NCBI GenBank assembly: GCA_951813565.1
Contig: OX638351.1
Location: 1,920,001 to 1,984,000, forward strand
Length of the DNA stretch: 64,000 nt
Source of the DNA: an uncultured Poribacteria bacterium
GTDB taxonomy: Bacteria; Poribacteria; WGA-4E; WGA-3G
Direction of reading: 5' to 3'
Part shown: positions 26,368 to 60,595 of the stretch, piece by piece
How positions within the stretch are numbered: the first letter of the stretch is position 1
How the letters are laid out: each line of letters starts with the position of its first letter
Made by a program: the position numbers and the translations under genes
Notes under the pieces: model-generated
Told to the model about the DNA's origin: nothing
Database searches by the model: none
The model's input: only the letters and a program-made list of their open reading frames with translations

Positions 26368-26790
26368 GGTAGGTTGGGCAGAGCGAAACCCAAATCAACG
26401 CTATGAATGCGCTTGTGGCATTCAGCCAAATCAACGCAGCGTGCGCGTGGCACGCTGCGGGTGTCAATTTAAGCATGAATCCCTGTTCACATCGTAGGGC
26501 CAAATCAACGCCAAATGCGCTTTTTGGCATTTGTCGGGTCCCTGTGCCCCGCCATGTGTCTGGATTATGTTAAGCAACGGGCGGGCACAGGGACCCGCCC
26601 CTACAAGAGGTGGCCATTTGGAGGAAATCGCGCTTACAAAGCGCTCCCACAAGAGAAATTCAGCAAATTTTTCTTAAGTTGACAGTTAATAGGCAGAACC
26701 CAACAAATTTCAAAAGAGGCGCAATGAATTGCGCGACTACAAACGCGGTACTTCCCAAGATGCACTTGTAAGCGCGCCTACCAGCGAGAG
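26368..26790. repeat. Cluster of GTAG REP-like hairpins, three CCAAATCAACG mini-elements and a TGTCAATTTAAG...CTTAAGTTGACA shell (26462-26684)
   Basis: Palindromes recur elsewhere in the window (e.g. 51206, 416, 57281). Confidence 0.7.
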
Positions 26791-26798
26791 CATGTATT

Positions 26799-27362
26799 TT
26801 ACAGAGCCAAAAAGTTGCCTAACAAACTCTTTCCAGCAGCTGTCAAAATAGATTCCGGATGAAACTGTACACCCCATACAGGTAAAGTCTTATGTCGAAG
26901 CCCCATGATTTCATCCTGATCTGTCCATGCCGTGATTTCAAGGCAATCTGGCAGTGTTTCTTTTTTTACAATCAGCGAATGGTAGCGCGTCGCTTCAAAT
27001 GGATTATCCAAACCCTCAAAAAGTTCAGCACCATTGTGCAGTATCATTGAGGTTTTACCATGCATCAACCGATCCGCACGGACAACCTCACCACCAAACA
27101 CGTCCCCAATACACTGATGCCCAAGACAGACGCCTAATATCGGCACTTTTCCTGCGAAATGTTCTATCGCATCGTTGGATATGCCTGCTTCTCGCGGTGT
27201 GCAAGGACCGGGTGAAATGACAATCCGCTCCGGTTCCAGCATGTCTAATTCCTCTACCCCTATTTTCCGACTGCGATGCACTTCCAATTCCGCACCGAGT
27301 TCACCAAAATATTGCACAAGATTGTAAGTAAATGAGTCGTAATTGTCAATCATCAAAACCAT
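26799..27362 (-). CDS. trpG: Anthranilate synthase component II (glutamine amidotransferase)
   Basis: [33 protein letters not shown] before ATG 27362. Confidence 0.9.
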
Positions 27363-27533
27363 CTTTTGCCTCCTATAATAGCAGAACTTGTTGCCACCTA
27401 TGTAGCACAACTTTAGTTTGTGCATATTAGGACGCAAACTGAAAGTTTGCGCTACGATATTTCACGAATAATGAACTGTTCTCTATTAAAAATGGCGTCT
27501 GTGCGTCTAAAATCTTATAGATAGCAACTTAGG

Positions 27534-29036
27534 TTATAATAGCAGCCCTTGTTGCGCCATTTCAATAGCAGTGAGCATTGCCCATGCCTTACTGACGGTT
27601 TCATAATACTCATTTTCAGGCACTGAATCAGCAACGACACCGCCGCCCGCTTGCACATAGGCAACACCATCTTTGATAACCGCAGTTCGGATCGTAATCG
27701 CTGTGTCCGCACTACCAGAAAAACTGAAATAGCCAACTGCCCCACCATAAGGACCACGACGTGTCGGTTCCAGTTCGTCAATGATCTCCATTGCGCGTAT
27801 TTTTGGTGCGCCAGAGAGTGTGCCTGCGGGGAGGCATGCCCGAATAACATCAAAAGCGGAAAGATTATCACGCAGTTTTCCAATAACATGCGATACGATG
27901 TGCATCACGTGTGAAAACTTTTCAACTATCATCAGATCGGTTACTTCAACGGTATGGTATTCACACACACGCCCGAGGTCATTTCGCCCTAAATCGACAA
28001 GCATGACATGCTCTGCGCGTTCCTTCGGATCAGCAAGGAGTTCTTGTTCCAATTCAATATCCTCTTCTGTGGTCTTTCCGCGCGGGCGTGTTCCGGCAAT
28101 CGGAACAGTCTGGACAAATCCATCTTCCACACGCACCATCATCTCTGGCGATGCCCCAACAATGTCAAAGCTATCAAATTTTAGGTAATACATATAAGGC
28201 GATGGATTCACCACCCGCAATGCACGATAAATATCGAACGAGTCAACGGATACCGGACGGCTAAACCGCTGTGAAGTTACAACCTGTATGATGTCACCTG
28301 CGGCAATATATTCTTTGGCGCGCCGTACAACGTTTTCGTAAGCAGCCTTTGTGAAATTTGAAGGCGGGTCAGGCACAGTTTCAGCAGGACTACCTGAACG
28401 ATCATCCGTCCTATTTACTAAATGCACTTCAGAAGTAGATGTCAGTTTTCCAACCATTGCGTCAATTTTGCCAACAGCATTGGCGTAAGCAGCATCTAAA
28501 TCCCCATCAATGTGTGCATTTGCCACAACTTTAATTTGATGATTTACATGATCAAAGATCAGAATTGTCTCTGCAATCATAAAAAAGCAATCGGGAAGTT
28601 GCAGTTCATCTTCGGTATCATCTGGCAATTCTTCCACGAAACGTACCATATCGTAACTCATAAAACCGACAGCACCGCCGTGGAACTGTGGTAAACCGTC
28701 AACACTGACAGGTTGATAATTCTGCATTACCTCTTCCAAGGCTTTCAGCGGGTCTTCATACTCCGTAGACACCTTTTCACCTTTTTCCAAATACTCAATG
28801 GTAACCTGATGTCCTTTGCTCTGGAAAAGGACGGACGGTTGGCTCCCCAAAAATGAGTAGCGCGCAACGGTTTCACCACCTTCAACGCTCTCTAATAAAA
28901 ACGCGTAATCATTGGGCATCAATTTGTAGAAGGCGGACACCGGTGTCTCCATATCTGCCAAAATTGGGCGATATACCGGTATCGTGTTGCCTGTTTTCGC
29001 TTTTTCCTTAAATTCCTCCAAAGTCGGATAATACAT
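27534..29036 (-). CDS. trpE: Anthranilate synthase component I
   Basis: LLES (Trp-feedback motif), NPSPYM, PIAGTR, EHVMLVDLGRND, GAPKIRAMEII. Confidence 0.93.
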   Translation of the reverse strand: MYYPTLEEFKEKAKTGNTIPVYRPILADMETPVSAFYKLMPNDYAFLLESVEGGETVARYSFLGSQPSVLFQSKGHQVTIEYLEKGEKVSTEYEDPLKALEEVMQNYQPVSVDGLPQFHGGAVGFMSYDMVRFVEELPDDTEDELQLPDCFFMIAETILIFDHVNHQIKVVANAHIDGDLDAAYANAVGKIDAMVGKLTSTSEVHLVNRTDDRSGSPAETVPDPPSNFTKAAYENVVRRAKEYIAAGDIIQVVTSQRFSRPVSVDSFDIYRALRVVNPSPYMYYLKFDSFDIVGASPEMMVRVEDGFVQTVPIAGTRPRGKTTEEDIELEQELLADPKERAEHVMLVDLGRNDLGRVCEYHTVEVTDLMIVEKFSHVMHIVSHVIGKLRDNLSAFDVIRACLPAGTLSGAPKIRAMEIIDELEPTRRGPYGGAVGYFSFSGSADTAITIRTAVIKDGVAYVQAGGGVVADSVPENEYYETVSKAWAMLTAIEMAQQGLLL

Positions 29037-29087
29037 TGAATAACTCCTTTTCGTATCCTTAACATCAAAATCTATTCTCTAAGTCCT

Positions 29088-29183
29088 TATACCAAATTAA
29101 CAGTATTCCACCAATCTATAAGTGCGGTTAGGAAACCGCACCTACCGTCCAAAAATAAGATAAATCGCGTTAATTTGGTATTA
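29088..29183. mobile_element. TATACCA-type shell with REP hairpin
   Basis: TATACCAAATTA...TAATTTGGTATTA ends; cargo GTGCGGTTAGGAAACCGCACCTACC. Confidence 0.6.
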
Positions 29184-29288
29184 CACCGTAAGGTAACAAA
29201 CACTGTTCTTTGTTATATCAATGGTAGGCAACCCAATTATGCAATTCCTGATCTGATGCCAAGGGACGAAAGTTAGGAATATCACAGT

Positions 29289-29669
29289 CTAATAGACAGC
29301 ATCAGCATCAAAAATCTTTTCACCCACCACATTTGTTGACTCACCATCGGAGGAGACTTCCCGAAAGAAGCAGGAGCGATAGCCGGTATGGCACGCTGCC
29401 ACCTTCTGCTCAACCTTTATGAGCAAGGCATCGCCGTCACAATCAACTGCTACAGACTCAACAGTCTGTGTATGCCCTGAAGTCTCCCCCTTTATCCACA
29501 ACTTTTGGCGGGAACGACTCCAGAAGCAGACACGACCAGTCGACAGTGTTTGTTCGATCGCTTCAGCGTTCATATAACCAACCATCAGCACTTCGTTATT
29601 TGTCTGATCCTGAATTACTGCGGCGACCAAACCATCGCTATCATATTTTAGTTCCGATAAAAATTTCAT
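29289..29669 (-). CDS. hisI: Phosphoribosyl-AMP cyclohydrolase
   Basis: WSRSR..LW.KGETSG, DCDGD, ACHTG..SCF. Confidence 0.95.
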
Positions 29670-29688
29670 AGTTTCTCCTTCGTCATAT

Positions 29689-29733
29689 TAAAAACAAAAA
29701 ACCTTATGCCACTGAGGTTCGTGTGCATAAGGC
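29689..29733 (-). terminator. Attenuator terminator hairpin plus U-tract
   Basis: Minus strand GCCTTATGC...GCATAAGGT followed by TTTTTGTTTTT. Confidence 0.8.
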
Positions 29734-29773
29734 TTAATAAGTAACATCAAAAATAAAATAGATCGAATTTTGC

Positions 29774-29869
29774 TTAGCGCGCACACTCCTCTTTAATGGA
29801 ATTGGAACGCCACCAATGCCAATAATTGAATATGCTATGCAAGTTGGAGTGTGAACGGGTATATTTCAT
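29774..29869 (-). CDS. trpL: Trp/His-containing leader peptide, 31 aa: MKYTRSHSNLHSIFNYWHWWRSNSIKEECAR
   Basis: Manual translation; WHWW cluster; followed by antiterminator and terminator upstream of hisI-trpE-trpG. Confidence 0.85.
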   Translation of the reverse strand: MKYTRSHSNLHSIFNYWHWWRSNSIKEECAR

Positions 29870-29972
29870 TTTTTAGGTCTTCGTAGTCAAAGTTCTCTTA
29901 CATATCATTTACAGCGATTTTTAATATAATACCACATTTAGATTCTATATGCAAATAAATTTAGAATTTTCT

Positions 29973-30086
29973 TATAGTGAAATGCATAATTATCTTGATA
30001 TTGGCGAGGTTAGGAAACCTCGCCAGCGCGAGTGTGTGGGAATTGTTATTCATTGAAATGTGAACATATTTTCGGATTTTACTATA
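29973..30086. mobile_element. TATAGT-type MITE shell
   Basis: TATAGTGAAAT...ATTTTACTATA ends; cargo GCGAGGTTAGGAAACCTCGC. Confidence 0.7.
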
Positions 30087-30099
30087 AACCCATTTAGCT

Positions 30100-30765
30100 T
30101 CAGTTATTGACGAACTTCCTCATGGGCATTTCCCCATCCCATTCCAACGGACGGTTCTCTAAATACGGACGCAGCAGCTCTCGAAGACGTCGATGCGCAT
30201 GATGCAAGTGTGTTTTGACCGTTCCTTCTGATCGATCTATGAGGACCGCAATCTCTTTAATCTGAAGTTTCTGATCATACCGCAATCTGAAAACACGTCG
30301 CTGTTTCGGAGCAAGTTGATTTACCGCCTTGCCAATAATGTCTCCGAGTTCCTCCATCTCAATTAGATGAGATGGAGATGGATACTTGCTAATCAGCATC
30401 AACTCCTCCGGACCTCCCGTTAATTCTTCAAATGCAACAGTTTTCCTCCTGCTCTGTTGCCGTAAAAAATCAATACAGCAATTCATGGCGATGCGGTAAA
30501 GCCAACTATAAAAAGCAGATTCACGTTTAAATTCCGGTAACGCCTTAAAGGCTTTCAAGAACACTTCTTGACAGAGGTCTTTTGTCGTTTCAGCGTCGTT
30601 AATATGTCTGTAAATAAGTTTTGCAATGCGGGTCTGATATTTCAGTACGAGTGTGTTAAAAGCACCTATATCACCGTTTTGGAATCGGGTTACTAACTCA
30701 TGTTCATCAATTAATTCTAATTCATCGGCAGATGGCAAATCTAAATGTCTTTTTGTGTCTGGCAT
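30100..30765 (-). CDS. ECF (RpoE-like) sigma factor
   Basis: DLCQEVFLKAF, FYSWLYRIA, SEGTVKTHLHHA. Confidence 0.9.
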   Translation of the reverse strand: MPDTKRHLDLPSADELELIDEHELVTRFQNGDIGAFNTLVLKYQTRIAKLIYRHINDAETTKDLCQEVFLKAFKALPEFKRESAFYSWLYRIAMNCCIDFLRQQSRRKTVAFEELTGGPEELMLISKYPSPSHLIEMEELGDIIGKAVNQLAPKQRRVFRLRYDQKLQIKEIAVLIDRSEGTVKTHLHHAHRRLRELLRPYLENRPLEWDGEMPMRKFVNN

Positions 30766-30914
30766 TCTAATTCTCCATAATGGGTGCGAACATTTTTGGG
30801 CTAATTGGACAAATGCGCAAGTGTGAATAACTTTATGTACTGCCACCGGAAATTCGGGCCACTCTCTAAGACAAGATTATGGTATAATATCCATCTACTT
30901 GAAAGGAGTATCCG

Positions 30915-31205
30915 ATGGCGAAACGAAAACGAAGAAACTTCACTCCCGAGTTTAAAGCCGAAGTTGTTCTTGAGGCACTGAGCGGTCAAAGTTCCCAAGC
31001 AGAAGTGTGTCGGCGACATAGCCTCAGCGATGAACAACTTTCAAAGTGGAAGCGACAGCTTCTTGAAAATGCGGCGACCCTCTTTGAACCCGCTGATAAA
31101 CAGTCTGATGCCTCTGCGGATCGGATCGCCCAACTTGAGCAACTCGTTGGGCGGTTGACCCTGGCACTTGACATCCAAAAAAAAGCCTCAACTTACTTGA
31201 GTTGA
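30915..31205 (+). CDS. IS3 OrfA (HTH)
   Basis: RRNFTPEFKAEVV...WKRQ; A8G slippery site at 31177-31185. Confidence 0.9.
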   Translation: MAKRKRRNFTPEFKAEVVLEALSGQSSQAEVCRRHSLSDEQLSKWKRQLLENAATLFEPADKQSDASADRIAQLEQLVGRLTLALDIQKKASTYLS

Positions 31206-32041
31206 CCCCGATGGAGCAGCGAGAAATGGTTGAAGCATTACGGATAGACTTTTCGGTTCGGCAGATATGTGAGACGCTCGGTTTCAACCGAAGCAATCTC
31301 TATTATCACCCCAAGCAGGACCCGTGTGAAGCGGGCCTCCGGGATGAAATAGAGAAGTTATCTTTGCTATATCCAACATACGGATATAGACGTATCACAC
31401 AGTTGTTAGTGCGTGGCGGATACACCATCGGGTATAAGCGTGTTGCCCGATTGATGAAATCCGCCAACCTCTCGGTTTCTGTCAAACGTGTCTGTCAAAC
31501 CACGACATCCGTTGCGGGTGTGCGTCCCTGGGGTAATCGCCTTGAAAACCTTGATGTCTCCCGATGTGATCAGGTCTGGGTAGGCGATATTACCTACGTC
31601 CGTCTCAAAGGACACTTCATCTATGTTTGTCTGCTCATGGATGTCTTCACTCGCATGATCAGGGGGTGGCATATCAGTCGACACTTGACGCAATCTCTGG
31701 CGTTGAAACCCTTAGAGACAGCATTATGTCAAAGTGTTCCAGAGATCCATCATTCTGATCAAGGCGTTCAGTATCTTTCAGATGCGTATATCTCACTGCT
31801 TAGGTATCATGGGATAGAGATTTCAGTCGCCCGAAGAGGGTGTCCTTGGGAGAACGGATATGCTGAAAGACTTATCCGCACGCTCAAGGAAGAAGAAGTT
31901 CATCTCAACGCCTATGAGGACATCCACGAAGCGAGAGCCCGCATTGGGCATTTTATTACGCAAGTGTATAATCACAAACGCCCTCATTCAGCGTTAGGGT
32001 ATTTGACACCTGTGGAATTTGAGCAAAAAAACTTGTCTTAA
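31202..32041 (+). CDS. IS3 OrfB (DDE integrase core), -1 frame relative to OrfA
   Basis: WVGDITY, HHSDQGVQY, ENGYAER, YNHKRPHSALGY. Confidence 0.92.
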   Translation: MTPMEQREMVEALRIDFSVRQICETLGFNRSNLYYHPKQDPCEAGLRDEIEKLSLLYPTYGYRRITQLLVRGGYTIGYKRVARLMKSANLSVSVKRVCQTTTSVAGVRPWGNRLENLDVSRCDQVWVGDITYVRLKGHFIYVCLLMDVFTRMIRGWHISRHLTQSLALKPLETALCQSVPEIHHSDQGVQYLSDAYISLLRYHGIEISVARRGCPWENGYAERLIRTLKEEEVHLNAYEDIHEARARIGHFITQVYNHKRPHSALGYLTPVEFEQKNLS

Positions 32042-32203
32042 CTTTGCTAAATTTTGGTCTGAATAAACGGTAGCACTTCATTAATTTATACACCTTAAGT
32101 GTCTAAATGTTCCCATATCTTAAACATTTAGACATTTTTATTAGCTTTTTTGTTCATTTTTAAGATATCCTCTGGCAATTCATTCTTCTCAATTATCTTA
32201 TTG

Positions 32204-32999
32204 TAACGACTTGTGCCAGTTAACATTTTGTTTTGTTGGTTTTCACATATATTTGCATTTGTGCTATAAACATATCGTCCCTACCAAATCAACGCCAAAT
32301 GCGCCAAATCAAGAAATCAACGGTATGAATCATGGCGAATGCCAAAAGCGCATTCGTCTTTAGTCATTCACCGGGTCCGAATGCCTTTTGGCATTCCCCG
32401 TCCGGCATTTGTCGGGACTAAAGAGTGCTCGTCCAATCATTTTCTATAAACATATCGTCCCTACCAAATCAACGTCAAATGCGCTTATGGCATTTGTCGG
32501 GACTGAAGAACATATAAATATATGATAATGACTTACAAACATTTCTTTTGTGAAATAAAGTTCTACAAATGGTTATTTAGCACAACTCGTTATTGTAGGA
32601 GCGAGCTCCAGCTCTCGACCTTTCATCTAAAACGTGTAATAAACCGACAATTGAATGTCTCTACTACACATCCAGAGGCATTCAATTGTCGAGTTTTCTA
32701 ATCCAATAGAAAAAATAGCGTTTTCAAAGGTTAAAAGAGGCTACGAATGCCATACGTGCATTTGGCGTTGATTTGGCAATGAATTGCGCTTGGTGAATGT
32801 GCGTCCGACATTTACATTAAACGCTTTTGTTGTTAAATCGGGGTTACAAACCCCTCCTACAAGAGTGTTACGTGACAATTGAATGTCTCTGCTCACATAT
32901 CCGGGGTGTGTGTAAAGTTTTGTAGAAATCCGCCCTACAGTGGAAAACGCCGCGTAATCATTGCAAATTGAACCTATGTAACCAAATATTTACACACCC
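32204..32999. repeat. Nested MITE/REP island: TAACGAC shell 32204-32592, CAGAGGC shell 32673-32891, GGGTGTG element 32904-32999
   Basis: Three distinct terminal-IR pairs, REP hairpins and several CCAAATCAACG mini-elements. Confidence 0.7.
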
Positions 33000-33077
33000 A
33001 CACATCCGCTTCCACTTGACAAGAACTATAACATCGGGTAAAGTGTTGACATCGCCTTAGCTATAAGGAACACCTCT

Positions 33078-34466: not shown

Positions 34467-34671
34467 GTGACATAAAATATTAATTGAATAAAAACAACTT
34501 ATTGCATATCATTACTTTTGCCAATTAAGAAATTTGGGGCATCTACATCCCGAAGCTAAAGCATCTGGTTTTGATGCCCATTACTGATAACATCTTCGGC
34601 AGAGCAATTGTCGCTTTAGATTGACTTTAGTTATCCTTATTTTTACAAATGTTAAACATGGTTTGCATTTT

Positions 34672-35074: not shown

Positions 35075-35116
35075 AACTTCGCAGTAATATGCGGCAATAA
35101 CAAGGACGGACTGATA

Positions 35117-42584: not shown

Positions 42585-43919
42585 ATGCAACACACTCCCG
42601 ATTCACTCTGGTTAACAATACTTGAGGAACTTGACGAAACCGCCCGTAATGACATATATCTCCGTCAAGTTATCCCACATTCACTCACCGAGGAGTCTTT
42701 TATCATTGCTGTTCCTTCCGATTATACACAAGACGAAATCGAAGACAGATTTCTCAGTGATATTAAGAAGGTGTTAGGCGATCAAACAAGTAACGGTTGT
42801 AAGTTAAAAATATCAGTGGATACGTCTCTTGCCAAAATCCCCGAGCCAGAGCAAGCTGTACATAGTTATGAAGAAGACACCCCTGAAACAGCAAACTTAA
42901 ATCCTCACTACGTCTTTGACAATTTCATGGTTGGGCCGAGCAATCGCATTTGTCATGCGACTGCGTTTGGTGCATCTGACGACTTGGGCGGAAAATACAA
43001 TCCGCTTTTTATATACGGTGGTGTAGGACTCGGAAAAACACATCTCCTTCATGCCATCGGCAATAGAGTACAAGATATAGGCCCTAAACGGAAAATTTTT
43101 TACGTCACCTCTGAAACGTTTATGAACGAATTTGTTGAATCTATCATGAACCGAAATTCAGCGCAAGGATTCCGCACAAAATACAGAACAGCGGATCTGT
43201 TATTAATTGATGATATCCAATTCCTTGCACGTAAAGAAGGTACACAAGAGGAATTTTTTAATACCTTCAACGATTTATACATGAACTCTAACCAAATCGT
43301 GATGACGAGCGATAGGTCGCCGAGTATGCTTGAAAACCTTGAAGAAAGGCTAAGTTCACGTTTTGAATGGGGCATGGTAGCAGAAATAGATAAACCTAAT
43401 TATGAACTCCGCCTTGCAATTCTACAGCGAAAATGTCAAGACCAAGAATTTGAGGATATTTCCGATAAAGTACTAAGTTACATTGCAGAAATGGTAACGG
43501 CAAATATTCGTGAATTGGAAGGCATACTGATACGTCTCACAACGCAGGCTTCAATTCTTGATGAACGACTTGATATTGACTTTGCACGCAGGGTCCTAAA
43601 TGACACAACCCCGATTAGCAGAGGATTACAGAAAAAAGTTATTACAGCAGAAGCAATACAGAAAGTTGTCACTGATCATTTTCAGCTGGACAGTGATGAC
43701 CTAACTTCTCCTAAGCGGACAAAAGTTCTTGTTTTCCCACGTCAAATCGCGATGTACCTGTGTAGAGAACTCACGCAGCTTTCTCTGTTAGATATTGCTG
43801 AAGCATTCCATCGGCAAAACCATAGAACCATCACGTACGCCTACGAACAGATTGAAAAACTACTTGAAGACAAAGAAATGAAAAAACTTATACAACTTTT
43901 AACTGATGAACTGACATAA
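42585..43919 (+). CDS. dnaA: Chromosomal replication initiator
   Basis: YNPLFIYGGVGLGKTHL, LLIDDIQF, RL.SRF.WG, NIRELEG, RQIAMYL. Confidence 0.97.
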   Translation: MQHTPDSLWLTILEELDETARNDIYLRQVIPHSLTEESFIIAVPSDYTQDEIEDRFLSDIKKVLGDQTSNGCKLKISVDTSLAKIPEPEQAVHSYEEDTPETANLNPHYVFDNFMVGPSNRICHATAFGASDDLGGKYNPLFIYGGVGLGKTHLLHAIGNRVQDIGPKRKIFYVTSETFMNEFVESIMNRNSAQGFRTKYRTADLLLIDDIQFLARKEGTQEEFFNTFNDLYMNSNQIVMTSDRSPSMLENLEERLSSRFEWGMVAEIDKPNYELRLAILQRKCQDQEFEDISDKVLSYIAEMVTANIRELEGILIRLTTQASILDERLDIDFARRVLNDTTPISRGLQKKVITAEAIQKVVTDHFQLDSDDLTSPKRTKVLVFPRQIAMYLCRELTQLSLLDIAEAFHRQNHRTITYAYEQIEKLLEDKEMKKLIQLLTDELT

Positions 43920-43959
43920 GTTCTATTCCTCTATCTGAAATTTTAGGAATTCGCAACAT

Positions 43960-44094
43960 TATAGTAAATTATGTAAATAAGTTCACATATATTCTGTAGG
44001 AGCGATCTCCGAATCGCGATGAAACCACTGTTAGTCGGGAATCGGAGTTCCCTCGGACAGCTCAGATGTCCAGTTAATTGTAGAATCCGCTATA
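43960..44094. mobile_element. TATAGT-type MITE shell, near-identical to 21512-21647
   Basis: Near-identical sequence over about 135 bp. Confidence 0.8.
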
Positions 44095-44139
44095 AGATTT
44101 GTAAACCCAAATATTCTCTAAAGTTTAAAGAATTAGATA

Positions 44140-44440
44140 TTTGTTATATACATTTCCTATTGATAATAACTTGATAATAACTTGATAATAACTCAACAAT
44201 AACTCTAAATTATTGTTGGTAAATTGTTAATAAGTTTTGCGTTCGTAAATTGAATTGATAAATTGTTAATAAGTGTAAAAGTTGTTATCAAGTTCTTATC
44301 AGCAATCATGTCAATCCCCACAAGGTTTTAGAGCAGTTATTAACATATTATCAGCCCCTACTGTTACTACTATGGTACAATTTAAATTTTAAATTGTACT
44401 TTAGTACATATATAAGACACGTGGATAACTATTTCACGAA
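44140..44440. other. Putative replication origin oriC
   Basis: AT-rich region downstream of dnaA; DnaA-box-like 9-mers; GC-rich CCCC then DnaA-trios TACTGTTACTACTAT (44359-44373). Confidence 0.8.
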
Positions 44441-44473
44441 ACCAATTCCATTTAAAAATAGAGTATGATATAC

Positions 44474-45932
44474 CAATACCTTCGCCAAAAATAATTGAAT
44501 AAATAGGGCGTCTGTCCTAAAGTTATAACAGTTAACCATAACTTAGAAAGGACAATCGCCCATGTCAGAAATTATAGCACTGTTTACTGTTCTTAATCCA
44601 TGTTTATCCGCAACGATGACGCGGCAGTTATGCCGAGTTGTATTCGCACTACTTGCGATGAGTGGTCGGGTAACCATGTTAAATATCTCTCGTTGGACAA
44701 CCCAAGGCGGTAGCTACCGCACCATACAACGCTTTTTCAACACTGTTATGCCTTGGACGACGATGTGTTGGATGTTTTTTCGCACGCATCTGTTTGATCG
44801 TGAAAGTGACTACATCCTCACAGGAGACGAAGTGGTTGTGCCAAAAGCAGGAAAATCTACTTATGGTTTATCTCGTTTCTTTTCTTCATTGTATGGCAAA
44901 GCGGTCCCCGGTTTGTCGTTTTTAGCCGTGTCCTTAGTGAGTGTCAACCGAAGGCGTTCATACCCGATGGTTATGGAGCAAATCGTGCGTGGCACCTCAT
45001 CGTCAAATCAAGGAGTTTGTGCTTCCGAACATCAGGACAACACCGAGACAGCAACACCAAGACATAAATGCGGGCGTCCAAAGGGAAGCCGAAACCGAAA
45101 CAAAGACGATGTCATGCTCAGCGATGTGTTGAAGCAACTTCAAACGATGGTCAAGGCGTTGCTAAAACTGGTTGGCAACTTGATCCCACTCCGTTATCTT
45201 GTGCTTGATGGATACTTCGGACATAATAATGCGCTACAAATGACAAAGCAATGTGGACTACATCTCATTTCAAAACTACGCATAGATGCTGCGTTGTATC
45301 TGCCACCGACGACACCTTACGCCGGACAAGGGCGCCCACGCATCTACGGAGAGCGTTTCACCCCACGACAGATTGACCCTAAGTATTGTGTTTCTGCCGA
45401 CACACAGGGAAACCTGAGAACCGAAGTGTATCAAATGAACTTACGCCACAAAAAGTTCACAGACTTCCTAAATGTAGTTTGCGTTCTCAAAACGAACTTG
45501 ACGACGAAACAACAAGCACACGTTTTACTGTTCAGTTCTGATTTAGCGTTAGACGCTGAAAAACTGATTGATTATTATTCCCTCCGTTTTCAAATCGAGT
45601 TCAACTTCCGCGACGCAAAGCAATATTGGGGATTACAAGATTTTATGAATGTCAACAAGATACCAGTAAACAATGCAGCGAACCTCTCAATGTTTATGGT
45701 GAATGTGAGTGCTAAACTCATAGATACGCTCCGTTGTAAAAATACTGCGTCCAGTGTTTTAGACCTAAAAGCACGCTACCGAGGTTTGAAGTATTTACAC
45801 GAAACATTAAAAATACTTCCGCAAAAACCTGAACCTATTGTTATTCAACAAATCGCACAACATTTGGGAACAATCGGTGCTATTCATCACACACAACCAA
45901 AACTGAACCCCGGATAATTGGCGAAGGTATTG
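44474..45932 (+). mobile_element. IS4/IS701-like insertion sequence with 15-bp perfect IR and 6-bp ATATAC target duplication
   Basis: CAATACCTTCGCCAA (44474-44488) and TTGGCGAAGGTATTG (45918-45932); ATATAC on both sides. Confidence 0.9.
44562..45917 (+). CDS. DDE transposase
   Basis: GDEV..K, LDGYFG, YSLRFQIEFNFRDAKQ (Y..R..IE..F...K signature). Confidence 0.9.
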   Translation: MSEIIALFTVLNPCLSATMTRQLCRVVFALLAMSGRVTMLNISRWTTQGGSYRTIQRFFNTVMPWTTMCWMFFRTHLFDRESDYILTGDEVVVPKAGKSTYGLSRFFSSLYGKAVPGLSFLAVSLVSVNRRRSYPMVMEQIVRGTSSSNQGVCASEHQDNTETATPRHKCGRPKGSRNRNKDDVMLSDVLKQLQTMVKALLKLVGNLIPLRYLVLDGYFGHNNALQMTKQCGLHLISKLRIDAALYLPPTTPYAGQGRPRIYGERFTPRQIDPKYCVSADTQGNLRTEVYQMNLRHKKFTDFLNVVCVLKTNLTTKQQAHVLLFSSDLALDAEKLIDYYSLRFQIEFNFRDAKQYWGLQDFMNVNKIPVNNAANLSMFMVNVSAKLIDTLRCKNTASSVLDLKARYRGLKYLHETLKILPQKPEPIVIQQIAQHLGTIGAIHHTQPKLNPG

Positions 45933-46019
45933 ATATACCTCTTTTAATTTCAAAGAAAATAGCGGAAAATGTTTTAAAGATTTTGTAAATAATTAAATAA
46001 GATAAATGGTGAAGTTCAG

Positions 46020-47180
46020 ATGCACTTGGAGCGCTTATGTCTGCGGAATTTTCGGAATTATGAGGAATGCGATATTACGTTTCATTCACCAGTGACGTTA
46101 ATCGTTGGAAGAAATGCGATGGGAAAAACAAGTCTTCTGGAATCGCTTTATTTTCTTTGTACCGGTGAATCGCACCGTGCGAATACGGCTGTTGAATTAA
46201 TACGACATACATCAGAAGGGTTTTCGGTTACAGGTTATTTCCGTAGTGATAAGAGACCGAATTCACTTATACGACTTGAGGCGGTGAAACCCCGTCAAGG
46301 TGCGTTCCGTCTAAAAACAGATGGTGTGTTGCAACAAAGACGTTCGGACTGGATAGGGCAGTTCAATGTTGTGGTTTTTTCACCTGAATCTTTGGAACTT
46401 GTGAAAGGTGCCCCTACATCCCGCAGACGATGGCTTGATCTGCTTTTATCCCAACTGAATCGTGAATATCTGGACGAACTTCAACGCTATCGTGAGATTT
46501 TACAGCATCGTAATGCGTTATTGAAGAGATTGAGTATCGGAAAAGGCTCGGTTGGCGAAATATCTGTTTGGGATGGTCTCCTTGTTGAATCGGGAGTTGC
46601 GTTGGTTGGCGCAAGACATACTGCGTTAGCAAGACTAAGTGGGATTGTAGAGACAACGCATCTTTCGTTGACAGGTGAACGAGAACGACTTTTGTTGCAA
46701 TATATTCCGGGAGTTGAATGTGTTATCGCTGAACTTTCTGATATTACGAATCTTTCAGATCATTTTCGGAACGCTTTGGCGAAAGCACGTCGGGATGAAT
46801 TGCGGCGTGGCTTAACACTTGTCGGTCCACATCGTGACGATTTTACTTTAATCTTAGAAACGTTAAACGGTGGCGAGACACTTTTGCGTGAAACAGCACG
46901 TACCTATGCTTCTCAAGGACAGTGCCGAACAATAGCACTTGCGCTAAAACTGGCGGAACTGGAGTTTATTCGGGAAGATACCGGTGTGGCACCACTTTTT
47001 TTGCTGGATGATGTCCTGTCGGAGTTGGATGTTAAAAGGCGAGCTTACCTATTAACATATCTACAAGGTGTCAATGCACAGACTGTGATTACAGCTACCG
47101 ACAAAGATGTGATGGGTGACGAACTGCCAGATGTCTACCTATTAATGGTTGAAAACGGTGTAATCGTTAATAATAATTAA
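46020..47180 (+). CDS. recF: DNA replication/repair protein RecF
   Basis: NFRNY, GRNAMGKT, GPHRDD, ASQGQ, LLDDVLSELD. Confidence 0.95.
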   Translation: MHLERLCLRNFRNYEECDITFHSPVTLIVGRNAMGKTSLLESLYFLCTGESHRANTAVELIRHTSEGFSVTGYFRSDKRPNSLIRLEAVKPRQGAFRLKTDGVLQQRRSDWIGQFNVVVFSPESLELVKGAPTSRRRWLDLLLSQLNREYLDELQRYREILQHRNALLKRLSIGKGSVGEISVWDGLLVESGVALVGARHTALARLSGIVETTHLSLTGERERLLLQYIPGVECVIAELSDITNLSDHFRNALAKARRDELRRGLTLVGPHRDDFTLILETLNGGETLLRETARTYASQGQCRTIALALKLAELEFIREDTGVAPLFLLDDVLSELDVKRRAYLLTYLQGVNAQTVITATDKDVMGDELPDVYLLMVENGVIVNNN

Positions 47181-47814: not shown

Positions 47815-48065
47815 TAACGACTTGTGCCAGTTAAGTGAAAGTTTTTTTTGTTTTTCACAATTGTTCATATTTTGGGATCAACGCCAAATACGCTTTTGGC
47901 ATTTGGCGGGAGCGATCTCCGAATCGCGACACGTTTGCAGTCGGGAATCGGAGTTCCCTCCTACCTTGAGAACAGCAGCTATCGGAAAAGTTGCGGAATG
48001 CAAACCCAAACAAGAGGAACATGTGAAATATAAATATACCAAATGTTAACTGGCACAACGCGTAT
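47815..48065. mobile_element. TAACGACTTGTGCC-type shell with REP cargo and a mini-element
   Basis: Ends CTTGTGCCAGTTAA...TTAACTGGCACAA; same left end at 32204. Confidence 0.65.
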
Positions 48066-48066
48066 A

Positions 48067-48552: not shown

Positions 48553-51075
<2,523 letters not shown>

Positions 51076-51076
51076 C

Positions 51077-51280
51077 TATAGTAAACTCAAAAAATATGTG
51101 ACCATTTTTTGGTAGGTGTGGTTTCCTAACCGCACCATAGGTGTCAATTTAAGGATTTATTTCAGGTTTCACACATTTTAACCCAAACAACACCGTAACC
51201 CGATTGTAGGGGCGGGTCTCTGTGCCCGCCCGTTGTTTGAATACATCAGAAACATGATTCAACCTCCATCTAAGCTGAAA
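51077..51280. repeat. TATAGT left end, REP hairpin and TGTCAATTTAAG-type shell (51142-51280)
   Basis: Shares motifs with 26462-26684 and 29088-29183. Confidence 0.55.
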
Positions 51281-53856: not shown

Positions 53857-53939
53857 TTGTCAGTAACAAACCTTCGTCAAATGTGGTTACGAATTATGGA
53901 GCGGGTTTGCCACTATTAAAGCAGATAAGGAGAACGATT

Positions 53940-55394: not shown

Positions 55395-55395
55395 T

Positions 55396-55490
55396 TTTCA
55401 GCTTTCGGTTTTTGGCTATCAGCATTCAGTTAAGAAACTGCTTTGCTGATAGCCGACGGTTGATTGCTGATGGCTATCTCGCTGAAAGCT
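55396..55490. repeat. Degenerate heptamer-repeat hairpin (TCAGC / GCTGA units)
   Basis: GGCTATCAGCA...TGCTGATAGCC inner stem; further GCTGATGGC and GCTGAAAGC units. Confidence 0.5.
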
Positions 55491-55498
55491 ATGAAGAA

Positions 55499-57208
55499 AT
55501 GCGATATACCATCATCACGGTTCTTTTGCTAACGCTAATCTTTTTTGTACAGTATGGTGAAGCATTCCGATGTGGCACACCACACTTAAAAATGGATATG
55601 GCACCCGAGCTTTTGTCGGAGGTGGCAACCGCACCAGCACCGGCACTCTCCATCGGATTCCAACGCCCCTTCTTTGCTATTGACTTCGCAAGAAGACAAC
55701 AGTATACAATCAATGCAACGCTGCGGGCAAGCGGTCCCCACTGTTATATTTTCGTTGAAGATTCAGAATGGCAAGAAAACGTCACAGCACACACTGTTCA
55801 AACTATCCAAACAGCGTTTGAGATAGCAACTCCTGCTGACCCACAGCGCGGTATTTACGACATCTTAACGGAAAACTTCGGCGCGCCACCGGATATTGAT
55901 GGGAATCAGAAAGTTATCCTGCTCATCTTCAACATACGTGACATCAACATCCACCAAGCAACAGCCGGGTACTTCTTGCCGATTGATCAGCACAGAGGTA
56001 TGCTACACCATCCAACCCTCGGACCACTGCATAGTAACGAGGCAGATATCCTCTATATTAACTCCAAAAAGCAGCCAACGAATTCTGATGCGATTCAGTC
56101 TGTTATTGCCCATGAACTCCAACATCTTATCCACTGGAAGCATTCTCCAAAGGAAGAAACATGGATAGACGAAGGGTGTGCTGATTACGCAGCTTTTCAA
56201 TGTGGTTATAACCTTTATCAGCATATTAATGCTTTTCAGAAGACACCAAACATTTCATTGACCGACTGGACACAGATGAGTCAGACGAACCTGCTGGCAC
56301 ACTATGGTGCATCCTTTCTTTTTATGTTATATCTTCACGATCATTATGGTGGTGTACAGACTGTTACTGCGCTTGTTAAAAATCCTTTAGACGGGATTTT
56401 GGGGATTACACGCACGCTGCAGGCACGCGGCATGTCACGTCCATTCTCAGACATTTTCGCCGACTGGAAAGTCACAAATTACCTCACAACGTGGAGGCTC
56501 CTTGGAACTCTTGAAAAACCTTTCCGGTATCATACGTTGACACCAGTGATTCAACCGCTATTCACCCATGAAACCTATCCTGCTAACGAAAAAAATAAGA
56601 AACTTGCAAATTTTGCTGCGCATGCTATTGAATGTAAAGTTGCAGCATTAGATCAGGCAGGTCTAACCGTTGGCTTTTCTACACAACGTAATGCGAACGT
56701 AGACATCAAGGTTGCTTATTTACGTAACACAGGGGAGGTGCATATTGAATCATTACCCTTTAAAATTGCGGATGGGACCGCCTCATTAGATATTCCTACT
56801 TTTGGAAATGACGTGCAACGATTGATGCTTATTCCAAGCCTACAAGTTGAAAATCAAAGTTTTTCTCAGCAAACTATAACTTATAACTATGATGCGTTTG
56901 AAGGAAGTCTCGGCACCTATACCATCCACGTCCTTCCTAATCCCATTCATCCAAATTATTGGGAAGTTATTGCTGTTCCAAGCGAGGCAAAAGGTATACA
57001 TTCACTTACATTAACGCTCACATATCAAAACAGGAAACTTCTTGATGCAAAACCGATAGTGTATGTTGAAAATGGAGACAATGCTCTTTATCGATGCGTT
57101 TTTCATCTTAAATCTGATATTGAAACAGCAGCGGTAAATTGGAGCATCAGACGCGGTGACACTATTATTGACGAAGGAGTTCTGAATCAACCGATAACCG
57201 ATAACTGA
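55499..57208 (+). CDS. Secreted zinc metallopeptidase (M6/M30-like)
   Basis: Signal peptide; IAHELQHLI plus WIDEG. Confidence 0.8.
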   Translation: MRYTIITVLLLTLIFFVQYGEAFRCGTPHLKMDMAPELLSEVATAPAPALSIGFQRPFFAIDFARRQQYTINATLRASGPHCYIFVEDSEWQENVTAHTVQTIQTAFEIATPADPQRGIYDILTENFGAPPDIDGNQKVILLIFNIRDINIHQATAGYFLPIDQHRGMLHHPTLGPLHSNEADILYINSKKQPTNSDAIQSVIAHELQHLIHWKHSPKEETWIDEGCADYAAFQCGYNLYQHINAFQKTPNISLTDWTQMSQTNLLAHYGASFLFMLYLHDHYGGVQTVTALVKNPLDGILGITRTLQARGMSRPFSDIFADWKVTNYLTTWRLLGTLEKPFRYHTLTPVIQPLFTHETYPANEKNKKLANFAAHAIECKVAALDQAGLTVGFSTQRNANVDIKVAYLRNTGEVHIESLPFKIADGTASLDIPTFGNDVQRLMLIPSLQVENQSFSQQTITYNYDAFEGSLGTYTIHVLPNPIHPNYWEVIAVPSEAKGIHSLTLTLTYQNRKLLDAKPIVYVENGDNALYRCVFHLKSDIETAAVNWSIRRGDTIIDEGVLNQPITDN

Positions 57209-57212
57209 TTAT

Positions 57213-57356
57213 TATAGTGAAACCCATAATTATTTGGACATTTTGTTCTTATGCGGATTTCAAACACACGATAAATATAAGAGGCGCAATGAATTGCGCG
57301 ACTACAAACGCCGCTAACCTTAAGAAAATGTCCAGGTATTTTTAGATTTTACTATA
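57213..57356. mobile_element. TATAGT-type MITE shell
   Basis: TATAGTGAAAC...ATTTTACTATA; cargo GAGGCGCAATGAATTGCGCGACTAC. Confidence 0.7.
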
Positions 57357-57369
57357 AGAGGAGGTATAT

Positions 57370-58350
57370 ATGTCAAACACTCTTTATGCAGGAACAATTG
57401 GACAAAGCATTTGGCGAAGCACCGACATCGGTAAGACTTGGCATCGTGCCAGCAACGGTATTTTTCCAGAAGCAGATATACGCGCAATCGTTGTGCATCC
57501 GACAGATTCAAATACGCTCTATGCTGGCACTGAAAAAGGTATTGTCAAAAGCACAAATGGAGGCGATACGTGGAAACACATGCCAAGTGAGATGGACAGC
57601 CGCGAAGTTTGGTCACTTGCCATTCATCCGACTGCTCCAGATACACTTTATGCTGGAACTTGTCCATCCGCGTTTTTCAAAACAACAGACGGTGGGGATA
57701 CGTGGGCACAACTTGACGCGGAACTTGCTCAAGAATGTGAAGGTATTCCCATCATCCCACGTGTGACGACTATCATTATTGATCCAGAAGACCATGAAAC
57801 TGTCTATGCGGGAATTGAAATTGACGGGATGCGTCTTAGCACCGACGGTGGAAAAACGTGGGATAACCGAAGTGAGGGATTGAGCAGCTTGGATATCCAT
57901 GGACTGACGGTGGTTCCGGGTGATCAGAAAGCCGTTGTTGCTGCGACAAATAACGATGTTTGTATCACCACAGATATGCACAGTTGGACGCCGTTACAGG
58001 TTCGTAACCATTTTCCGTGGCCCTATTGCCGCGCGGCATTCTATCTGAACGGTGAAAACGCCAAGGTCTTTATTGGTGCTGGCAACGGTCCCCCCGGTGA
58101 CCAAGGTGGTATCTTTTATATGCAAGATACTGATGCTGCACAGGACGCTGAGGCGATTCGTTGGGATCGCTCTGATATTGGGATGACAGCGAATAGCACT
58201 ATTTGGTGTTTCGGCTATAATTCGCGTGTTAACGGATTGCTAATAGCCTGTAGTGTGAGTGGACAACTTTTCTTGAGTGAGGACAATGGCGGCTCCTGGG
58301 CGAAGTTGACACATGAATTCGGAGAGGTGCGCGCTTTGGCGGTCGCATAG
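57370..58350 (+). CDS. BNR/Asp-box beta-propeller protein
   Basis: Repeated STDxGxTW Asp-boxes; SD GGAGG; no signal peptide. Confidence 0.85.
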   Translation: MSNTLYAGTIGQSIWRSTDIGKTWHRASNGIFPEADIRAIVVHPTDSNTLYAGTEKGIVKSTNGGDTWKHMPSEMDSREVWSLAIHPTAPDTLYAGTCPSAFFKTTDGGDTWAQLDAELAQECEGIPIIPRVTTIIIDPEDHETVYAGIEIDGMRLSTDGGKTWDNRSEGLSSLDIHGLTVVPGDQKAVVAATNNDVCITTDMHSWTPLQVRNHFPWPYCRAAFYLNGENAKVFIGAGNGPPGDQGGIFYMQDTDAAQDAEAIRWDRSDIGMTANSTIWCFGYNSRVNGLLIACSVSGQLFLSEDNGGSWAKLTHEFGEVRALAVA

Positions 58351-58404
58351 CTAAATCAACACCGAATGCGTTTATGATATTTGGCTGATAAATATTTGCG
58401 GAAA

Positions 58405-58450
58405 AGTCCTTATGTGGTTGGTAAGGGTAAATACCACATAAGGACTGTTT
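58405..58450 (+). terminator. Hairpin, putative terminator
   Basis: AGTCCTTATGTGGT...ACCACATAAGGACT followed by GTTTT. Confidence 0.55.
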
Positions 58451-58720
58451 CACTATAACATCTATTTTACAACGTCATTGGAATGAACAGATTTAACTAA
58501 AAAAATTATATCTTGACTTTTTTCGACAATTTATGATAAACTTTTGGCAGTAGGTGGGTTGTGCGTTTAACTCAATCATTTGTTGGCAGACATAGGGTTT
58601 TGCCCTCCGCCAAATCATACAGAATACCACACGGCATTTGGCGTTGATTCCATCTAAAATACGCAGCACACGCACAGACGCCCTATGACAAAAGTTTAAT
58701 CAAGGAGGCATATCTCTATT

Positions 58721-59482
58721 ATGCGTTTTTTTAGTTTTCTATTGATACCTTTGCTCCTCATTTCAATCGTTGGATGTTTTAGGGGCGATAATATTACTAC
58801 TCCCCCATCTTTTAGCGAAGCAAAACGGATTGCTGTTACCCCTTTCCTCGCTGAAGGCGAAGAGACACAAGAACTTGGTAAACGAATTAGCAGGAATTTG
58901 GGAAATCATATAAAATTTATCCTGAAAGAAAATGAATGGCTTTTTGACGAGTCGCAAAAAGTTCAACCAGTAGGTGAAAAAGTTGCGGAACTCGGATTAA
59001 CCCTAAATGATGTTTATACGGATCCTGCTTTGGCGGCTAAAGTCGGGCAGGCATTGAATGTGGACATTATCATCACGGGAAAGATCGAAGAACCCACACT
59101 TAACCGAAGAGATTATAATGAGCATCTTATGCGTCAAGGTAGACAAACCGGTATTTCAGGTACATCTACTTACATCCGTACCCTCCAGGCTGCGGTCGGT
59201 AAAGTCCGTGTCAAGGCTATTGATGTACAATCAGGCAATATGCTCTATAACAATCAGATTCTTTCTCATCTTAAGTATTGGTTTGCTTATCAAACGCAGG
59301 CGAGTGGCCAAATAATTTTTAAGGAACCTGTGGATATGCTCGCGGATTTAGGGAATCATTTGCCACGCCGAATTGCGTATATGCTTTATCCAAGTGGGAT
59401 ATCGAAAGAGCCTGAAGATAAGGTTTTAGTGAAACCAGATATCGTTCTCAAAGGTACAGGCGGAATAGTTGAATTCAAGTAG
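58721..59482 (+). CDS. Lipoprotein, possibly CsgG/TolB_N-like fold
   Basis: Lipobox SIVG-C; RIAVTPF...GQALNVDIIITGKI...IDVQSG. Confidence 0.7.
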   Translation: MRFFSFLLIPLLLISIVGCFRGDNITTPPSFSEAKRIAVTPFLAEGEETQELGKRISRNLGNHIKFILKENEWLFDESQKVQPVGEKVAELGLTLNDVYTDPALAAKVGQALNVDIIITGKIEEPTLNRRDYNEHLMRQGRQTGISGTSTYIRTLQAAVGKVRVKAIDVQSGNMLYNNQILSHLKYWFAYQTQASGQIIFKEPVDMLADLGNHLPRRIAYMLYPSGISKEPEDKVLVKPDIVLKGTGGIVEFK

Positions 59483-59501
59483 AATTGCCTTAATGTTAAT
59501 T

Positions 59502-59660
59502 TATAGTAAAATCTGTAATTATCTTTACACTGCTGTAGCGTAAACTTTCAGTTTGCGCAAATACGACACAAACTAAAAGTTTGTGCTACAGGAAATGTGG
59601 TCGGAAATGTTTCTTACCTGGACCAATAGCAATGTAAAAGTAATTCTAAAATCTACTATA
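59502..59660. mobile_element. TATAGT-type MITE shell
   Basis: TATAGTAAAATC...AAATCTACTATA; cargo GTAGCGTAAACTTTCAGTTTGCGC and CACAAACTAAAAGTTTGTGCTAC. Confidence 0.7.
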
Positions 59661-59665
59661 AAGCC

Positions 59666-59708
59666 CAAAGGCGGGCGGAAGCTGCTGCTTCGGCCCGCCT
59701 TGTTTTTT
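59666..59708. terminator. Intrinsic terminator between convergent genes
   Basis: AAGGCGGGC.GAAGC-TGCT-GCTTC.GCCCGCCTT followed by GTTTTTT. Confidence 0.7.
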
Positions 59709-59729
59709 ATCCTAAGGTTCATGTTTTCT

Positions 59730-60212
59730 TTAATTATCTTCTATAGATGGTGTTGGATTACTATCTTGGAAGAATTCATTTATCTGGCGCGTATAGGCTT
59801 TACCGTGTTGCAGCAGTTGTAAAGATACATCGTAGAGTTCGGGGGCTGGGAGGCCCTCATAAGGGTTAGCTATTTTCTGATAACAAGTTAATGCGTGTTC
59901 AAAGAAATTTAGCGTTTCCAGATCAATTGCACCGCTCTCTTGAACTGCACGAAAGCCTTGGTATTTTTGGTAGGGAGGGGTCTTACCGCTAAATTCTATT
60001 ATAGCATTGTTTATGTCTACTGTCCGTTGCACAATCATCAGGAAGCAGCTTTTGATATAAGAATGTGTCAGTCTATCAGCTGTTACATATTCTTCTCTGT
60101 TTGCTGGAAGACCATTCTGCAATTGTCCGAAACATTCCTCCATATATGCCAATTTTGCTTTTACAGGATTAAACTGATGCTGTAGTATTTTCTTTTCTGA
60201 GGCTTTTGACAT
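59730..60212 (-). CDS. DUF86/HepT-like HEPN protein with degenerate catalytic motif
   Basis: QRTVDIN..I...PP...Y..F pattern; expected R-x4-H motif reads YQKIANPY. Confidence 0.6.
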   Translation of the reverse strand: MSKASEKKILQHQFNPVKAKLAYMEECFGQLQNGLPANREEYVTADRLTHSYIKSCFLMIVQRTVDINNAIIEFSGKTPPYQKYQGFRAVQESGAIDLETLNFFEHALTCYQKIANPYEGLPAPELYDVSLQLLQHGKAYTRQINEFFQDSNPTPSIEDN

Positions 60213-60321
60213 TGTATTCTCCTAAGGAATTATTTTTTTTGTCAAAATATGGTTTTTAAATTAGACGTTATTTTGGGGGAAAAGTTGGAAATCCCACTAA
60301 ATTTTCTGTGTTTCGTAAACT

Positions 60322-60595
60322 TAACGTGAGTTTGGTATAAGTCTATTTTTACGAATTGTCAGATTTTTCCATTGATTTTGCCTATTTTAAGGGTTTAAGA
60401 GGTAAAAATAGGTAAAACACGCTTTTATCTATGCCGAAACTCATGTTATACCATTTCAAAAAAATAACTTCTCTTAAAGAAATAGACCGTTCGTAGTTGC
60501 GCAATTCATTGCCAAATCAACGCCAAATACGCGTATGGCATTTGGCGCCTCTTACATTTTTTCAAAAGAGAAAATAATTCATAGAATTGGTATTA
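60322..60595. repeat. Two adjacent shells: TAACGTGAG type 60322-60448 and TATACCA type 60447-60595
   Basis: Terminal IRs; the second contains a REP split by the 34-bp mini-element. Confidence 0.55.

Follow-up and report, generated by a model that had tools for sequence, protein, structure and literature searches.

A 64,000-nucleotide stretch of the genome of an uncultured Poribacteria bacterium (contig OX638351.1, positions 1,920,001 to 1,984,000), which we call the window, carries copies of a hairpin-forming repeat of 33-36 nt. We find that this repeat, hereafter the unit, is a real, non-coding and apparently mobile DNA element, whose length comes close to the minimum for mobile DNA. An earlier note, made from the letters of the window, had listed about 11 copies, and a unit or a compound of units is indeed present at all eleven places.

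Sequence, structure and distribution of the unit

The unit consists of two variable bases, the eight-base tail AATCAACG, a hairpin body of 23-25 nt and a C, which is nearly always followed by G. Only AATCAACG is constant: the motif proposed in the earlier note is present, but the two or three bases ahead of the tail, which had been included in the consensus, vary. Among 1,270 matches to AATCAACG, they read CCA (519), GTG (138), AGA (125), GCG (39) or ATA (37). The last CG of this leader pairs with the terminal CG, so that a stem of 10 bp closes a loop of 7 nt and a short tail is left unpaired. The foot of the hairpin is AATCAA(CG), and it has no tetranucleotide of the GTAG type.

The stem covaries. 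We selected 52 distinct 33-mers by nothing other than leader, length, terminal YG and the bases closing the loop. Of their stem cells, 94.6% are paired, and 6 of the 10 pairs change on both sides, a count that is inflated by the relatedness of the sequences. None of 500 shuffles matched this pairing, and controls in which the stem was slid were 26-42% paired. The stems thus vary while keeping their pairing, as had been described.

The genome-wide search that had been suggested was made on the genome holding the window (G000, a single contig of 5.43 Mb, 95% complete). It found 519 occurrences of CCAAATCAACG, where an order-5 Markov model expects 11.7. Iterative peeling, which is incomplete and leaves the sizes of one subtype off by one base, recovered 636 units in 492 clusters, as opposed to 2 in the reversed genome; 417 of the 636 are 34 nt long and 171 are 35 nt. 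Relative to the direction of replication, the two strands carry 347 and 289 units, the position of the origin being unclear. At the gathering score, Rfam matched one tRNA as its sole hit in the window and nothing in the unit.

All 39 genomes of the same genus contain the unit in its loose form, AATCAACG-N22-26-CGG, with 18-353 matches per genome; the reversed pattern has 1-12. A stricter pattern is present in 24 of 24 genomes of the genus and in 0 of 16 genomes from three other families. In the genome collection, the strict motif form was found in at least 108 stretches, and among the 80 matches listed, 79 belong to Candidatus Poribacteria and one to an uncultured bacterium. Viral contigs yielded no unit match. 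We also looked by eye at AATCAACG in four genomes of other families and saw no hairpin family among the 150 matches listed, which come from two of the genomes. Because the unit is seen in both short-read and long-read assemblies, and because gap-free contigs cross a copy at a unique site in four of four runs from four studies, it is not an artefact of assembly. One tandem shows a 68-base skip in the run contigs, which is ambiguous.

Two loci outside G000 hold words that resemble the leader. In a genome of another family (G026, locus L111), AATCAACG occurs twice in the spacer between paired hairpins that resemble repetitive extragenic palindromic (REP) sequences, adjoining a gene like those of REP-associated tyrosine transposases (RAYTs), and at L102 TCAACG-like words stand before REPs. 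Such words could possibly be the origin of the leader. In another Poribacteria genome (L153), an array of CGTC-type REPs contains eight units, spaced with a period of 86 nt.

The hairpin also exists in a second form. A sister family of about 28 nt has the same oriented hairpin core, no leader and a 3' CATG tail, and numbers 98-118 copies in G000. The core has 469 matches in this genome (9 in the control), of which 312 carry only the leader, 98 only the tail, 2 both and 57 neither; that is, the two forms are nearly exclusive, occurring together in 2 of 412 cases. A strict pattern for the sister family is found in 29 of 39 relatives. Its main insertion site is GGC|ATT (the bar marks the point of insertion), in the 3' arm of a leader-type unit, and its copies at L239, L244 and L252 lie in an apparent transposase gene.

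Insertion sites and junctions

Intergenic sequence makes up 18% of the genome and contains 447 of the 492 unit clusters. A REP-like repeat is touched in 219 of 293 distinct contexts, compared with 27% of random intergenic positions and 35% of intergenic C|G positions. The proposal of a tiny non-autonomous element living in REPs agrees with most contexts, but units are found in unique coding DNA as well. They stack in tandem, sometimes as arrays of identical units, and nest in one another. Many copies have identical long flanks and were multiplied inside larger cassettes, so that copy number overstates the number of events. For copies borne by REPs, orthologous empty sites are mostly unavailable because the relatives are without the entire cassette, and a further locus, L295, has diverged too far to show its allele. 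A non-coding cassette of about 500 nt (G000:C1:368696-369199 and copies), which has inverted ends and a dense content of REPs from several families, holds the AATCAACA...TG variant of the unit, at about 22 copies.

Empty alleles, on which the claim of mobility depended, exist both within the genome and at orthologous sites, and the orthologues show true insertions, including some in unique coding DNA without repeat homology. In the lipoate-protein ligase (LplA) gene (L349, G000:C1:4511632-4511665), G000, G006 and G052 share an in-frame 36-nt unit that amounts to 12 extra residues. The other 17 of 20 aligned loci are empty, as an exact 36-nt gap, and five of these empties have CG at the site. 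The second example lies at the start of the 8-oxoguanine glycosylase (OGG) gene (L296, G000:C1:4444598-4444631), where our comparison covered 30 of 39 matches. A 33-nt unit is present in 11 of the 30 loci, a decayed stretch of equal length in three, and no unit in 16, of which 11 read ACA|G. This unit encodes 11 residues of the N-terminus in at least 11 of the 30 genomes.

We tallied junctions by hand in G000 and in 400 kb from each of three relatives, a set of 510 simple units ending in CG in 255 flank contexts, 114 of which have an empty allele and 88 at least two. In these 88 contexts, 47 insertions are pure (36 at C|G, 7 at G|G and 4 at A|G), 31 have lost one to three target bases, which are replaced, and 10 are ambiguous. 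It had been stated that the target shows no clear duplication. This is correct in that nothing is duplicated beyond the shared C, but it overlooks the 31 contexts with replaced bases. When the requirement for a CG end was dropped, 424 of 590 units still ended in CG, in line with what had been said of most copies, while 141 abut the next unit and 25 have other ends.

The junction is fixed on the hairpin side and varies on the tail side, where the target usually agrees with the leading base of CCA, GTG, GCG or AGA. At the GTAG feet of REPs, 39 filled alleles carry G in place of the A of the empty allele, and not one retains the A; in one host REP family, the empty alleles read GTAGG 95 times and GTGGG never. 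We sorted the non-CG sites by hand into 15 host-site classes, which are not independent. On the hairpin side, these classes read C|T (nine), C|C (two), C|A (two), C|G (one) and G|T (one), so that the preceding base is C in 14 of 15; in the sole G|T class, CCTCG is common to the site and to the flank of CG-type donors. Five of the C|T classes are GTAG feet, read as C|TAC in the inverted REP, and four are other sites. Compared with a base rate of 0.32, C|T appears to be in excess if the classes are left unpooled (9 of 13, p = 0.007). The two coding insertions also follow a C, at C|G in LplA and at C|T in OGG.

Possible routes of movement

The explanation that we favour, tentatively and short of an even chance, is that REP-associated HUH nucleases of the RAYT type make single-strand nicks into which the unit is copied, with microhomology repair to follow. 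The TnpA-REP of E. coli cleaves between C and T, as in GACC|TACA, and its 3'-OH has been proposed to prime synthesis (PMC3333891). The 5' C is dictated by G4 of the foot (PMC3479197), and a Marinomonas RAYT also cleaves CA, and CC after a change to GTGG (PMC8266576). Both cutting and joining by TnpA-REP are seen in vitro, and these papers call the in-vivo route unknown (PMC3333891, PMC3479197, PMC8266576).

For the unit, such a nuclease would nick the hairpin-first strand 3' of C, within a REP or next to one in most cases, with C|G and C|T used more often than C|C and C|A. A unit held through its hairpin and its tail would then either be joined to the free 3'-OH or be copied with it as primer, and one to five matching bases in the flank of the donor would assist. 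The tail end would be healed through one or two shared bases, with the blocked 5' base at the nick usually lost. Every CG-type insertion would create a fresh C|G, leading to tandem and nested stacks, and most present copies would have been multiplied later and passively within larger repeats. Were the HUH transfer clean and two-ended, the T would remain; since it is usually lost, one-ended nick-and-copy is favoured. An HUH enzyme for the unit, as suggested earlier, is plausible. RAYT-like loci number five in G000 (one has a stop codon, one is frameshifted), and those encoding candidate proteins include C1:242023-242493 (forward), 5070794-5071273 (reverse) and 3097995-3098471 (forward). Two of three RAYT-like proteins tested pass the NF047646 cut-off. 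With greater doubt, we suggest that the unit might be a minimal parasite of the REP/RAYT system without an enzyme of its own, which would ride the C|T and C|G nicks of domesticated HUH nucleases through one-ended nick-and-prime copying, a route that would be undescribed for IS200/IS605 or REP elements.

Several observations weigh against copying into RAYT nicks. RAYT relatives, present in 28 of 36 genomes of the genus, are also found in 17 of 24 genomes of other families, although the unit was not found in the 16 such genomes searched. A Y1 gene was not found in G001, G010 or G023, each of which has more than 100 unit pattern matches. The expected association of the motif with transposase genes did not appear, with a unit-like match near the gene at only 3 of 30 RAYT loci; at those of G000, the unit-like matches lie within the flanking REPs. 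The unit itself is without a GTAG foot. If the five GTAG-foot classes are pooled, C|T falls to 5 of 9 (p = 0.13). At the OGG site, A follows the hairpin in 10 of 11 close genomes, whereas G000 and the three decayed copies carry G there, the position being synonymous; one GTAG-foot copy (L198) also keeps A, so some of the replacements could be later changes; G-to-A drift is likewise seen at the clean LplA site in G006. Donors with the common GG flank account for 139 of 252, and because matching to this flank also yields C, a C before the junction needs no nuclease rule. The AATCAACA variants show no shift to T|G targets in their few independent contexts, 23 of the 42 listed copies being one amplified context. 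Finally, no within-species polymorphism of the unit was seen in four runs, whose contigs break at REP clusters.

The main rival, which we consider unlikely, is that the unit has an HUH-type or other enzyme of its own, which cuts it out and inserts it cleanly through the tail-first strand, AACG acting as the guide to C|G, and that the apparent replacements arise later, when template switching perfects the extruded hairpin. Under the guide rule, in which positions 3-4 pair with the cut site, AACG would call for C|G (PMC8266576, PMC3479197), and C|G does prevail among clean targets (36 of the 88 contexts, and the LplA site). Perfected palindromic copies with two leaders occur, A is retained at the OGG site in 10 genomes, and all 52 aligned units have the same leader, although it was a criterion of their selection. 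However, the non-CG targets on the tail-first strand (G|G, T|A, C|A, A|A and A|C) follow no rule and there is no fixed cut on the tail side. Few intermediates remain uncorrected (0 of 39 at GTAG feet), AACA variants in G018 and G000 remain at C|G, and a gene bounded by units was not found. It is less probable again that no dedicated enzyme takes part and that the hairpin is copied from repeat to repeat during host replication or repair, where short shared words would allow template switching and gene conversion. Such words are present at both junctions, many copies share identical long flanks within larger repeats, and identical units form tandem arrays, all of which this explanation would accommodate. 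It would not account for the fixed length, the leader kept in 39 species, the covarying stem or the exact insertions in unique coding DNA, which together indicate recognition by a protein.

Three further routes have lower probability. Movement through a small RNA, copied into a nick by a reverse transcriptase precisely at the 3' hairpin end and sloppily at the 5' end, is very unlikely. Junction asymmetry of the kind seen in the unit is an outcome of target-primed reverse transcription, and G000 has two reverse transcriptase genes, but one is CRISPR-linked and the other is a solo gene of 511 aa without unit-bounded ends. PF00078 was found in only 10 of 24 genus genomes, which speaks against reverse transcriptase as the general mover, and was not found in the unit-rich G006, G012 and G017. 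Still more improbable is the derivation that the earlier note had in mind, a non-autonomous relative of IS200/IS605 elements on which TnpA acts through TCAA and TTGAT. G000 has five IS200/IS605 TnpA genes and 45 open reading frames (ORFs) with TnpB motifs, one resident family ends in TCAA, and single-palindrome elements of 52 bp are known to move in Haloquadratum (PMC3119063). Yet TCAA is not terminal in the unit, TTGAT is part of the element and not of its target, no 4-5-nt target exists, and 31 of 88 contexts lose target bases. The resident IS605 ends are other hairpins, with targets TTAG/TTAA and termini TGAC/TCAA, which excludes the unit as an IS605 end, and the leader occurs within 130 nt downstream of 1 of the 45 TnpB ORFs. 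Just as improbable is integration by a recombinase with a two-base core, of the IS110 bridge type or the IS607 serine type, leaving mixed core bases. IS110 elements do target REPs (PMC3184786), three IS607 copies are present in G000, and some junctions resemble mosaics of the target and CG. Against this, no IS110 transposase was found in the 95% complete genome (0 PF01548 matches), which speaks against IS110 as the mover; the IS607 ends are without the unit motif, so the unit is not an IS607 end either; no core is fixed on both sides; and the net gain ranges over 32-35 nt among like units. A double-stranded circle of 34 bp is also implausible.

We compared the unit with the IS605 and IS607 ends and with long repeats and found, in agreement with the earlier expectation, that it is not the end of a longer known insertion sequence. 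As for an autonomous parent, 5 of 222 long repeat copies begin or end at a unit; three of these are the non-coding cassette of about 500 nt and two are a duplicated gene segment. A search for IS91 Y2 gave no match, as did the control genomes, and no Ku gene for end joining was found in G000 at its 95% completeness. In the same genome, the 45 TnpB-motif ORFs stand beside only 5 IS200/IS605 TnpA and 3 IS607 TnpA genes, and there is one tyrosine recombinase match (207 aa).

If RAYT nicks do receive the unit, its junctions would be the first footprints of RAYT cutting within genomes, and the CATG-tailed sister would mean that one hairpin can bear interchangeable tails with different targets. For the spread of REPs and other repeats of fewer than 50 bases, an open question, the unit would then be a natural record: it gives hundreds of filled sites, matching empty alleles and base-exact junctions in a host that encodes candidate RAYTs. 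With filled and empty alleles and candidate RAYTs in one genome, the route can be tested using short oligonucleotides. The unit also alters proteins, as lipoate-protein ligase and 8-oxoguanine glycosylase illustrate.

Copies in the window and comparison with known systems

Several insertions in the window are at C|G. A CA-type unit at 60513-60546 (forward strand) lies in the 3' arm of GTAGTTGCGCAATTCATTGC|GC. As had been reported for the repeat beginning at 60493, removing the unit leaves the exact reverse complement of the hairpin at 416-440 (reverse strand), the empty allele, which recurs at 26716 and 57281. A second clean CA-type insertion, at 32465-32498 (forward), is in the loop of a GTCCCTAC|GGGAC REP, and a third CA-type unit (32742-32775, reverse), whose final base has drifted, is at C|G in the 3' arm of a GCGCAATTCATTGC|GC hairpin. 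The earlier note had placed inserts in the GTCCCTAC|GGGAC REP at both 32284 and 32464, and both are found. The former is a nested compound (32285-32413, forward) in the loop of the REP, built of an outer unit whose loop holds a second one, a GA-type unit in the leader of this second unit, and a CATG-type piece; a sister-family unit is nested here at 32331-32358 (reverse). It had been described as self-nested, which is true of the units, but this compound, like that at 58609, also holds pieces of the second family.

The tandem noted at 26390 consists of two CA-type units on the forward strand, one with a 25-nt body (26391-26426) that adjoins a GTAG-type REP and one with a 21-nt body, CAGCGTGC/GCACGCTG (26427-26458). 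Another CA-type unit (26501-26535, forward) is within the 5' arm of a GTAGGGC REP. The sequence around it had been equated with the intact copy at 51206-51231 (forward), an empty GTAGGGGCGGG REP that is a host of the CA class. The two are related but do not match exactly, because the 51206 copy has an extra G and a different loop. An empty allele of the GTAGGGGCGGG REP is also present at 26579-26604 (reverse), and elsewhere in the genome its loop is filled, with loss of target bases (the CAG class).

A TG-type unit (TGAATCAACG, a 23-nt hairpin body and C) at 3954-3987 (reverse) is part of a REP-containing cassette of about 220 nt between fabH and fabD, and the complete cassette is absent from the closest relatives. 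At 47874-47907 (forward), a GG-type unit with the leader variant GATCAACG has replaced target bases at the GTAG foot of a GGAGCGATCTCC REP. A degenerate unit at 58352-58385 (forward) stands immediately after a stop codon, with no REP, and is missing in G002, G048 and G052. The GG-type unit at 58609-58651 (reverse), at C|G, contains a nested CATG-type remnant; in relatives this site is empty (G008), holds a simple 34-nt unit (G006) or is more deeply nested (G002, G048 and G052). A degenerate 28-nt copy of the sister family, with the hairpin and a 3' ATG tail, lies at 15556-15583 (forward), and G049 has the same site.

Apart from the unit, the window contains a DDE_5 transposase gene at 44562-45917 (region 42585-47180), between dnaA and a recF-like gene, the place where dnaN usually stands. 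Three tandem paralogues of about 1.27 kb with PD40 repeats occupy 60822-63998, and similar clusters are found elsewhere in the genome. At G000:C1 ~3989500-3993200, a CRISPR array has as neighbours a gene for a reverse transcriptase and one like cas1, which are separated by a REP cassette. In G015 and G016, reverse transcriptase is matched 12-17 times per genome, often near the start of a contig and in long frames, and these contigs are perhaps foreign to the two bins.

In the literature, searched through titles and the beginnings of abstracts, we found no description of the unit. The nearest in behaviour are the small dispersed repeats SDR1-8 of the Nostocaceae, which are likewise very small, dispersed and limited to one lineage. 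They are said to have been described by Elhai et al. in 2008. Their size is 21-27 nt, against 33-36 nt for the unit. SDR5 inserts precisely within another palindrome, HIP1, and its mover was not identified (PMC5861425, PMC4390886); the unit too takes a precise position within other palindromes. Unlike the SDRs, it occurs in another phylum, and its targets are REP-like hairpins and itself.

In construction, the unit resembles REPs, REPINs and bacterial interspersed mosaic elements: a short 5' tail and a hairpin, about 35 nt, intergenic, in hundreds of copies and in tandem or inverted arrays (PMC3333891, PMC3479197, PMC8266576, PMC3116915). It is a high-copy intergenic hairpin within the 20-40 nt of such repeats, and many of its junctions appear to lie at the C|T step of TnpA-REP, including C|TAC in inverted REPs, although its commonest target is C|G. 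Unlike REPs, it has AATCAACG and not GTAG as its tail, takes REPs as its targets, shows no clustering around a RAYT gene and occurs as sharply distinct filled and empty alleles, including in genes.

The 52-bp terminal-only palindrome-associated transposable elements (PATEs) of Haloquadratum are also mobile single palindromes without target duplication, and the SMR-A repeats of the same organism are small and insert into the palindromes of other elements by an unknown route (PMC3119063). The unit is smaller than the PATEs, is unrelated to the resident IS605 ends, and has no terminal inverted repeats; its tail and CATG forms are nearly exclusive, unlike a fused left and right end. It has neither IS605-related palindromes nor a fixed target and cleavage tetranucleotide, its targets have at most a dinucleotide in common, and target bases are lost, although TnpA is available in trans from the five IS200/IS605 loci of G000. 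IS621, IS1397 and ISPpu9, like the unit, insert at fixed positions of REPs (PMC3184786), but they are full insertion sequences with a transposase, whereas the unit has 34 nt and enters many REP families and positions. An IS110-mobilised miniature element does not fit, with no DEDD transposase found in G000 and no fixed core on two sides, nor does a MITE (a miniature transposable element with terminal inverted repeats), the unit being an asymmetric tail and hairpin without target duplication. In other words, the unit works like the Nostoc SDRs, PATEs and SMR-A and is built like a REP, while it departs from the features that define PATEs, REPs, MITEs and IS110-mobilised elements.

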